Part shown: piece after piece, positions 38,109 to 38,252 of the stretch
Position numbering within the stretch: the first letter of the stretch is position 1
Layout: every line of letters begins with the position of its first letter
Assembly (NCBI GenBank): GCA_034530615.2
Contig: JAVRCV020000068.1
Location: 64,001-128,000, forward strand
Length of the DNA stretch: 64,000 nucleotides
Direction of reading: 5' to 3'
DNA from: Aulosira sp. ZfuVER01
GTDB lineage: Bacteria; Cyanobacteriota; Cyanobacteriia; Cyanobacteriales; Nostocaceae
The notes under the pieces: model-generated
What the model was told of the DNA's origin: nothing
The model's database searches: none
The model's input: the letters and a program-made list of their open reading frames with translations, nothing else
Made by a program: the position numbers and the translations under genes

Positions 38109-38252
38109 AATTCCGCACAAGTTAGCAAAGCAGTTTTCACAATTGCCTTTACCATTTTGGCTACGCTCCCATATAAGGGAGCGACAGGAATCGAACCTGC
38201 ATATCCTTTCACAGATAGTGTGTGTATGCTTCACAAGTTAGGGCGCGGAATT
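38109..38252 (-). ncRNA. scaffold RNA unit 4, YrlA-type circularly permuted tRNA
   Basis: T-arm GCAGG-UUCGAUU-CCUGU, loop-closed acceptor CGCUCCC-UUAUAU-GGGAGCG, then D-arm UAGCCAAAAUGGUAAAGGCA. Confidence 0.85.

Follow-up and report, generated by a model that had tools for sequence, protein, structure and literature searches.

Among described RNAs, the YrlA family of Y RNAs comes closest to the element considered here. As laid out in those portions of two published accounts that deal with its design (PMC4201824; 10.1101/312249), a YrlA RNA presents T, closed acceptor-like and D stem-loops in this order, with a variable (V) region preceding the T-arm and a UA linker; it keeps the elbow nucleotides of a transfer RNA (tRNA), and its anticodon stem runs on into an Rsr-binding module, the 5' strand of which carries the motif GNCGAAN0-1G. 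According to the same portions, its gene lies at most 4 kilobases (kb) from that of Rsr, on the same strand. The family (Rfam RF02553) is reported there from Salmonella Typhimurium, M. smegmatis and more than 250 species (Chen et al., 2014, Wang et al., 2018). Its traits also include Rsr binding in vivo and modification by TruB and DusA. Here we analyse a stretch of 64,000 nucleotides (64 kb; hereafter the window) from the cyanobacterium Aulosira sp. ZfuVER01, and in it an element, unit 4, that lies on the minus strand in a cluster of numbered RNA units and protein genes, one of which encodes a Ro60-like protein. Judged from its sequence, unit 4 is probably the gene of a non-coding RNA of about 144 nucleotides (nt) that belongs to the Y RNA class and follows a YrlA-like design. 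The comparisons below support its description as a new Y RNA variant of the YrlA design, with a different putative Ro-binding module, beside a Ro60 paralogue.

A tRNA core in permuted order

No open reading frame (ORF) of at least 60 amino acids overlaps unit 4 (38109-38252). Its minimum free energy (MFE) fold has -50.1 kcal/mol, where 200 dinucleotide shuffles give -33.3 +/- 4.0 (z -4.26; 0/200 as good). It leads from the 5' end through a 10-base-pair (bp) terminal helix and, past an internal loop, through an 8-bp helix to a 4-bp one (CACA/UGUG), which opens into a junction with four hairpins: the UAUCU/GGAUA hairpin, the T-arm, a 7-bp stem and the D-arm, whose loop is AAAAUGGUAAA. The parts are these:

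38109..38252 (-): unit 4 in full, 144 nt, made up of the scaffold and a tRNA-like head in circularly permuted order
38243..38252 (-): scaffold helix H1, 5' strand, partner 38109-38118 (MFE and RNAalifold)
38235..38242 (-): internal loop, 5' side CCUAACUU, facing UAACUU at 38119-38124; putative Ro60-like docking site, from conservation
38227..38234 (-): scaffold helix H2, 5' strand, partner 38125-38132 (MFE and RNAalifold)
38219..38222 (-): anticodon-stem equivalent CACA, partner UGUG at 38138-38141 (MFE only)
38202..38217 (-): variable-region hairpin UAUCU/GGAUA (UCCG-GNRA-CGGA in most homologues)
38184..38200 (-): T-arm GCAGG-UUCGAUU-CCUGU, loop UUCGAUU
38164..38183 (-): acceptor-like 7-bp stem CGCUCCC/GGGAGCG with a 6-nt closing loop
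38145..38163 (-): UA linker (tRNA positions 8-9), then D-arm GCC-AAAAUGGUAAA-GGC at 38161-38145

A protein-anchored scan, with one genome per species, yielded 227 loci with relatives of the Ro60-like protein; the best 80, nearly all from Nostocales, were kept, and synteny counts refer to these. BLASTN locates unit 4 in 71 of them, in every case upstream of the Ro60-like gene and on the same strand, with homologues 76-96% identical. A covariance model built from the window copy and 64 homologous copies (R1) matches unit 4 in the window at 154.3 bits; its matches of 130 bits or more come from the window and from the 71 loci found by BLASTN. Four loci without the unit (L005, L010, L041, L053) offer less than 1.2 kb of upstream sequence and are uninformative. 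Given 65 homologues and no structure, RNAalifold returned 34 pairs that recover both scaffold helices and all four hairpins. The hairpin order proposed in the initial annotation (variable-arm-like hairpin, T-arm, 7-bp closed acceptor stem, D-arm) thus matches the MFE fold and the consensus structure alike.

For covariation, 65 sequences were aligned, the seven of the 72 copies that carry an insertion in the T-loop being excluded. Standard pairs fill 96.2% of the cells. Both partners change in seven pairs, where shuffles show 1.9 +/- 0.8 such pairs (0/500 reach 7) and six slid controls 0-1. The shuffle control overstates this support because the homologues, nearly all from Nostocales, are close relatives and represent few independent covariation events. 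The compensatory changes fall in the V hairpin (columns 45:51, GC 53, AU 8, UA 1), the T-stem (59:75, CG 62, UA 3), the acceptor stem (81:92, CG 52, UA 7, UG 6; 78:95, GC 64, AU 1) and both scaffold helices. The commonest form of the acceptor-like stem has 7 bp, and all seven pairs are standard in 64-65 of the 65 copies.

The elbow nucleotides hardly vary. In tRNA numbering, U8, A14, A15 and G19 are present in 65/65 copies, and G18 and A21 in 64/65; G53, U54, C56, A58 and C61 are present in 65/65, and U55 in 64/65. Position 57 is a purine throughout (G 31, A 34). The last base of the V region is always a pyrimidine (U 61, C 4); as position 48 of a Levitt pair with A15, it would give A15:U48 in 61 copies, A15:C48 in the other 4, and no covariation. 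Positions 9, 16, 59 and 73 vary freely, as they do in tRNAs. Of the loop that closes the acceptor-like stem, only the two bases before G1 are kept (A in 65/65, U in 64/65), the remaining ones being variable.

Neither ARAGORN nor the Rfam tRNA model finds a tRNA in native order on 38109-38252. We also permuted the sequence by script, cutting it at the acceptor loop and joining the natural ends, and ran ARAGORN with introns allowed. The permuted window copy is then called as a tRNA with the scaffold as its 'intron', and none of 100 shuffles of the permuted sequence is called; over the 65 homologues, tRNAs are called in 63/65 permuted sequences and in 0/65 in native order. Since a tRNA is called only after permutation and the core nucleotides are kept, unit 4 is a circularly permuted tRNA core without an anticodon loop or a free CCA end. 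A corollary of the permuted order is that the acceptor stem is closed by a loop. Unit 4 is not a tRNA in the ordinary sense, which would require a native cloverleaf, an anticodon loop and free acceptor ends.

Shared scaffold and Ro60-like neighbour

What might such a core be attached to? The scaffold of unit 4 recurs in its surroundings, where the following sister RNAs are found:

39001-39084 (-): unit 1, tRNA domain like that of transfer-messenger RNA (tmRNA), without an mRNA part, acceptor stem with open ends (Rfam tmRNA)
38782..38905 (-): unit 3, scaffold and whole tRNA-like domain, anticodon UUU (Rfam tRNA 51.1 bits; ARAGORN; fold)
38265..38451 (-): unit 5, scaffold and head of about 130 nt (R1 20 bits)
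37125..37252 (-): unit 6, scaffold and whole tRNA-like domain, anticodon UAA (Rfam tRNA 48.6 bits; ARAGORN; fold)
36498..36572 (-): unit 8, scaffold-only hairpin of about 75 nt (R1 matches of about 78 nt at the corresponding position of other loci)
33158..33385 (-): unit 7, scaffold and a head mimicking ribosomal RNA (rRNA), just upstream of an ORF of 277 amino acids

The scaffold loop GYGCCCUAAC/AACUYG is common to unit 4 and at least five neighbouring RNAs. In every locus, R1 matches other elements through the terminal helices alone. Beyond unit 4 it picks out unit 6 (47.1 bits), unit 3 (29.4) and unit 5 (20) in the window, where its scaffold matches are confined to this locus (4 plus-orientation matches); in units 7 and 8, the scaffold was recognised by sequence. 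An alignment of 138 elements, covering all unit types and 39 sources, has 94.4% of the helix cells paired against 80.7% in shuffles, a figure to be read with the fitting of the alignment to the model in mind, which favours pairing. Double-change cells number 359, against 122 +/- 10 in shuffles (0/500) and 35-83 in slid controls, and changes on both sides affect 8/10 pairs of H1 across the 138 elements and 5/8 pairs of H2 across unit types. Between these helices, the 5' side of the internal loop reads C (137 of 138), C (137), U (113), A (103), A (137), C (116) and its 3' side A (137), C (137), U (138), U (123); the consensus of the conserved 5' strand is G-Y-G-C-C-C-U-A-A-C. Covarying helices around a near-invariant asymmetric loop look like a protein docking site, and we propose the internal loop as the putative docking site of the Ro60-like protein, which is encoded downstream:

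35003..36433 (-): Ro60-like gene (TROVE ring and vWA domain), 476 amino acids, 80/80 loci; in the ORF list it extends to 36571 (522 amino acids)

We place the start at 36433 because AGGAGG precedes the ATG there and relatives have 476-478 amino acids. The longer form in the ORF list is explained by unit 8, whose end lies about 50 nt short of the gene's ribosome-binding site. Unit 8 itself could be either an autoregulatory leader or a Y RNA in minimal form. In the protein, Pfam recognises the vWA domain only; a single-sequence search of PDB chains returned a 'TROVE domain-containing protein' (E-value 1e-4, residues 71-440). A profile of 46 diverse relatives matches human Ro60 (1.2e-14), the Ro60/TROVE protein of Thermus phage phiLo (1.5e-13), Xenopus Ro (1.2e-11) and D. 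radiodurans Rsr (1.5e-7). Among these 46 family members, ten are matched by PF25045 vWA_Ro60 and none by the Pfam TROVE model. The AlphaFold (AF2) model is of high confidence (predicted local distance difference test, pLDDT, 90.8; predicted template-modelling score, pTM, 0.81), and the top 12 Foldseek matches are all Ro60, Rsr or TROVE structures, with template-modelling scores of 0.60-0.72 over 461-543 aligned columns, nearly the full length. On the basis of sequence profile and predicted fold, the neighbour is a divergent Ro60 paralogue and not a canonical Rsr; its predicted architecture is that of a full-length structural homologue of Ro60, a TROVE HEAT-repeat ring followed by a vWA domain. 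The best 120 of 3093 word-indexed matches to it are cyanobacterial and 81-97% identical, and an exhaustive search puts the family at 1054 clusters at 50% identity. The 'vWA protein' of the initial annotation is thus a Ro60 homologue, encoded on the same strand as unit 4.

The Y RNA reading, its rivals and the locus

How far does the likeness to YrlA reach? The order of arms is the same by MFE fold, RNAalifold, covariation and ARAGORN after permutation, the anticodon-stem equivalent being present by MFE alone. The nucleotides engaged in tertiary contacts agree in the D and T loops, in the UA linker and in the pyrimidine at the last V position. Unit 4 ends at 38109, and the Ro60-like gene starts 1.7 kb downstream, at 36433, both on the minus strand. 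The YrlA-type topology assigned to unit 4 beforehand agrees with the design as described in the relevant portions of PMC4201824 and 10.1101/312249, and the Rfam YrlA model aligns the same three arms: its match spans 38145-38201 (model positions 30-81 of 114) and covers the T-arm, the acceptor hairpin and the D-arm. When four homologues from the 71 loci with the unit were scanned, L078 scored 28.7 bits over the full model, L055 26.2 and L034 21.9, and L031 gave no match.

Several observations weigh against this reading. The YrlA scan cuts both ways: YrlA is the only Rfam family that matches the unit 4 stretch at an E-value of 10 or less, whereas the match, at 23.1 bits (E 0.14), attains a third of the gathering score of 69. 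The model leaves the scaffold of the window copy unaligned, and the GNCGAAN0-1G motif is missing from the 5' strand of unit 4, AAUUCCGCGCCCUAACUUGUGAAGCA, which leaves conservation as the sole ground for the proposed docking site. Because of the sub-threshold score and the missing motif, unit 4 is not filed as a member of RF02553. The anticodon stem does run into the scaffold in the MFE fold, as had been claimed, but it does so with only 4 bp; this helix is invariant, is not recovered by RNAalifold from the 65 homologues and, being ambiguous in register, is the weakest element of unit 4. Five loci with at least 3.6 kb of upstream sequence truly lack the unit (L026, L029, L035, L049, L077), and the sample is phylogenetically narrow, nearly all of it Nostocales. 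In 7 of 72 copies (L022, L036, L043, L045, L065, L067, L070) an insertion of 22-24 nt follows the first T-loop base, which should break the elbow, and the copy of L006 has two extra bases at the same site. Finally, in a promoter and terminator scan of 34800-39700, promoter-like sites were rarer than in shuffled sequence, and no signal delimited unit 4. As for the T-loop insert itself, it has no match in the window at up to 3 mismatches, and exact copies occur only at that site in 4 loci; within the sequence of the window and the loci, it is no dispersed repeat.

We envision a scenario whereby the scaffold loop would dock the unit 4 RNA on the Ro60-like ring and the tRNA-like head would offer its elbow and acceptor stem, without an anticodon or a free CCA, to a tRNA-recognising partner. 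In this way, the RNA would tether the Ro60-like protein to this partner or let the partner gate it, the role that Y RNAs play for Ro60/Rsr. Candidates for the partner are a 239-amino-acid protein and an L7/L12 paralogue encoded nearby, EF-Tu, and tRNA-modifying enzymes. Units and ORFs alternate, with no promoter or terminator to delimit the units, and for this reason the RNA would likely be cut from a long transcript shared with the neighbouring ORFs and the sister RNAs. The 7-bp stem together with the conserved A-U before G1 makes it plausible that RNase P cleaves within the acceptor loop, a cut that has been shown in M. smegmatis YrlA.

A variant that would refine the YrlA-like reading and not replace it takes this cleavage further: RNase P would cut before G1, the 3' trailer would be trimmed and CCA added, which would leave a bipartite RNA with an acceptor end that resembles M. 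smegmatis YrlA or permuted two-piece tmRNA and might be charged or bind EF-Tu. The prevalence of the 7-bp stem with its seven standard pairs and the retention of A and U before G1 in an otherwise variable loop are in its favour. CCA, however, is not encoded, the discriminator varies freely (U 40, G 14, A 11), which argues against synthetase identity, a tag reading frame is absent, and the Rfam tmRNA_permuted model does not match unit 4; we regard this two-piece form as conceivable, if on the unlikely side.

The remaining alternatives concern the locus as a whole. Its order on one strand is unit 1, units 2/3, an ORF of 69 amino acids, unit 5, unit 4, an ORF of 239, unit 6, the L7/L12 paralogue, unit 8, the Ro60-like gene, unit 7 and an ORF of 277, so that units alternate with ORFs. 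The genes other than the Ro60-like one are:

38461-38670 (-): 69-amino-acid ORF ending in Tyr-Gly, 76/80 loci
between units 4 and 6 (-): 239-amino-acid ORF, 67/80 loci
36694-37086 (-): L7/L12 paralogue, between unit 6 and the Ro60-like gene (TIGR00855, 105 bits), 28/80 loci
32253-33086 (-): 277-amino-acid ORF, 72/80 loci
31609-32259 (-): ThiF/E1-like gene, overlapping the 277-amino-acid gene, 69/80 loci

The L7/L12 paralogue belongs to a clade of 126-amino-acid proteins that are 71-100% identical to the window copy, after which identity falls to 58-66% for proteins mostly of 128-129 amino acids, taken to be canonical L7/L12. The 69-amino-acid ORF and the 277-amino-acid and E1-like genes look like a putative ubiquitin-like or sulfur-carrier module; 'ubiquitin-like' is said of the 69-amino-acid ORF because of its size, its terminal Gly and its E1 neighbour only, and the ORF has no PDB or family match. 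The 277-amino-acid protein gave no lead in Pfam, NCBIfam, PADLOC, PHROGs, PDB-profile or Atlas searches, and its AF2 model (pLDDT 44.8) is unusable. The 239-amino-acid protein has no family or PDB match, and its Atlas look-alikes are unnamed and about half viral; its co-occurrence with unit 4 is loose (64/71 loci with the unit, 3/9 without). On the opposite strand, a 455-amino-acid ORF (33571-34938, +) occupies the space that separates the Ro60-like gene from unit 7. With a relative in 1/80 loci (45% identity) and a weak ATG-grasp-type match only, it may be a genome-specific insertion or no gene.

The heads of the sister units point to the translation machinery. Units 3 and 6 carry complete tRNA-like domains joined to the scaffold via the acceptor stem (Rfam tRNA, ARAGORN, folds), the attachment opposite to that of unit 4, just as the initial annotation had it, and its phrase 'both ends of a tRNA' describes the locus accurately. 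Unit 3 is nested in a larger arrangement (units 2/3, 38725-38945, minus strand): an outer tRNA-like element, with its 5' acceptor strand and D-arm before the unit 3 scaffold and a hairpin, T-arm and 3' acceptor strand after it, is split by that scaffold, and the inner tRNA-like domain sits inside. One strand of the unit 3 scaffold (38869-38894, minus) aligns to E. coli 16S 70-96 with a score of 27 against 19.1 +/- 1.4 in 30 shuffles; we take that part of 16S to be a variable region and the match, for this reason, to be due to chance. In unit 1, the Rfam tmRNA model scores 43.8 bits against a gathering score of 47, with both model ends covered and the middle deleted.

Two further units resemble rRNA. 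Unit 7 holds, at 33322-33335, an exact 14-base copy of E. coli 23S 2652-2665, which by its numbering is presumably the sarcin-ricin loop and which recurs in 56/80 loci. It also holds, at 33213-33268, a 56-nt mimic of the 23S GTPase-associated centre (Rfam LSU, the large-subunit rRNA model, 39.9 bits) that aligns to E. coli 23S 1062-1104 with a score of 41 against 21.5 +/- 2.0 for shuffles. The homologue in L055 (L055:10064-10119) scores 52.4 bits (47.2 in another run) against a gathering score of 50. An Rfam search over 33000-35100 missed the mimic in the window, and the match appeared once 241 bases were given. The two mimics correspond to the two rRNA elements that make up the factor-binding site of the ribosome. 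In unit 5, 38387-38412 matches E. coli 23S 1916-1941 at 23/26 positions (score 37 against 20.8 +/- 2.0 in shuffles), whereas Rfam on unit 5 alone finds no rRNA match; its fold is weak on its own (z -1.4). An 80-amino-acid ORF antisense to it (38262-38504, +) is probably no gene. Units 5, 7 and 8 have no tRNA-like head.

Might these heads be bait? The head of unit 4 would then be a surrogate target for an RNA-damaging or tRNA-binding agent, such as a toxin or an enzyme of a phage or competitor, and the Ro60-like ring would sense damaged or occupied RNA. The proposal draws on the sister units, which copy whole tRNAs, a tmRNA-like domain, the sarcin-ricin 14-mer and GTPase-centre RNA on one scaffold, on solved complexes in which Ro60 holds misfolded RNAs (going by the titles of the structure entries), and on the conservation in the locus of the E1-like gene and the 69-amino-acid ORF ending in Gly. 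It is inferential throughout, the matches to defence families being limited to a generic E1 domain, and we consider it unlikely as an account of unit 4. An extension to the whole locus, no less tentative, would make unit 4 one display module of a ribonucleoprotein array that is built on the Ro60 paralogue, carries surrogates of the translation machinery and acts as bait or sensor. Such an array would display the elbow and closed acceptor stem in unit 4, whole tRNAs with exposed anticodon loops in units 3 and 6, a tmRNA-like domain in unit 1, the sarcin-ricin loop and GTPase-associated centre in unit 7 and, in some loci, an L7/L12 paralogue as well; it would fall to the Ro60-like ring to read out which baits are damaged or bound, and to the ubiquitin-like/E1 pair to pass on the signal.

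Alternatively, the tRNA-like structures could be nothing but processing punctuation, that is, signals by which RNase P and RNase Z cut a polycistronic mRNA as in mitochondrial transcripts. The alternation of units and ORFs along one strand would fit, but cutting has no need of a near-invariant scaffold loop common to all unit types, units 5, 7 and 8 bear no tRNA-like head, and the full set of elbow nucleotides is conserved beyond what a cleavable stem requires, so that we find this improbable. Least credible of all is that unit 4 is what remains of two tRNAs in tandem, or a tRNA pseudogene in decay or a repeat without function, which would place it among the false positives that Chen et al. 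caution against (one tRNA's T-arm followed by the next tRNA's D-arm; PMC4201824, in the portion concerned): a dimeric-tRNA-transcript origin of YrlA is discussed in the corresponding part of Wang et al. (10.1101/312249) and a T-loop insertion is tolerated in 7 copies, but there are no flanking anticodon arms and no native-order tRNA call, the flanks pair into the scaffold common to the sister units, the element is syntenic in 71/80 loci with compensatory changes, and R1 scaffold matches in the window lie only inside this locus.

Significance and comparison with known systems

In the literature searched, which included part of the supplements of Chen et al. (2014), we found no description of this locus, and its cluster of RNAs, which mimic components of the translation machinery, is apparently undescribed. 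Chen et al. (PMC4201824, as far as the portion on the search tells) looked only beside TROVE-annotated genes, and an entire family of Ro60 paralogues, the 1054 clusters counted above, escapes TROVE annotation. In the cyanobacterial loci examined, this family would have Y-like RNAs of its own. The construction of YrlA, in which a permuted tRNA core is mounted on a stem that binds Ro, would then recur on a different scaffold, either because the range of YrlA is wider or because the design arose a second time. For the question of what binds the tRNA-like head of YrlA, the translation-machinery mimics and the candidate partners nearby offer concrete hypotheses. If the array outlined above were real, it would give bacteria a novel type of surveillance system and Ro60/Y ribonucleoproteins a role that is new for them.

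In its paired ends, long stem and effector module, unit 4 has the architecture of Y RNAs in general, a class defined by Ro60 binding to which it would probably belong; its 144 nt slightly exceed the 80-130 nt quoted in the consulted portion of PMC4201824. The Deinococcus radiodurans RNA Yrn1 and metazoan Y RNAs likewise combine a long terminal stem bearing the Ro60 site with a distal effector module; in Yrn1, however, the T- and D-like arms have the opposite orientation (PMC4201824, same portion). Metazoan Y RNAs, unlike unit 4, have no tRNA-like head. Two-piece tmRNA shares with unit 4 the order in which the T-arm and the 3' acceptor strand precede the 5' acceptor strand, whereas unit 4 has no tag reading frame, no encoded CCA and no match to Rfam tmRNA_permuted. 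We presume some resemblance between the bulged-C helix of metazoan Y RNAs and the CCUAAC loop of unit 4, and give it no weight.

The comparison with YrlA is closer. Both are permuted tRNA-like effectors in which a V region is followed by the T-arm, a closed acceptor stem-loop, a UA linker and the D-arm; both keep the elbow nucleotides, end the V region in a pyrimidine and lie within 4 kb of a Ro60-type gene on the same strand, and the 7-bp acceptor stem is shared with M. smegmatis YrlA. They differ in the Ro-binding module, which in unit 4 is putatively GYGCCCUAAC/AACUYG and in YrlA GNCGAAN0-1G, in the neighbouring protein, a 476-amino-acid Ro60 paralogue missed by Pfam TROVE as opposed to an Rsr of 533-534 amino acids, and in number, unit 4 being one of at least six scaffold-sharing RNAs in its locus and YrlA one of one or two. 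Canonical YrlA also occurs in the same phylum: Table S1 of Chen et al. (2014), in the part covered, lists canonical Ro60 genes of 533-534 amino acids together with YrlA in Nostoc, Calothrix and Anabaena, with Nostoc punctiforme (Npun_F0915), Nostoc sp. PCC 7107 and Calothrix PCC 7507 as examples. These RNAs, which in the published alignment start with GGCCGA/GGUCGAA-type motifs (Chen et al., 2014, same part), share the overall design of unit 4 and differ from it in locus and protein. Nostoc sp. PCC 7107 carries a homologue of the 277-amino-acid gene as well (P0353), which, together with its canonical YrlA, suggests that both systems can coexist in one genome.

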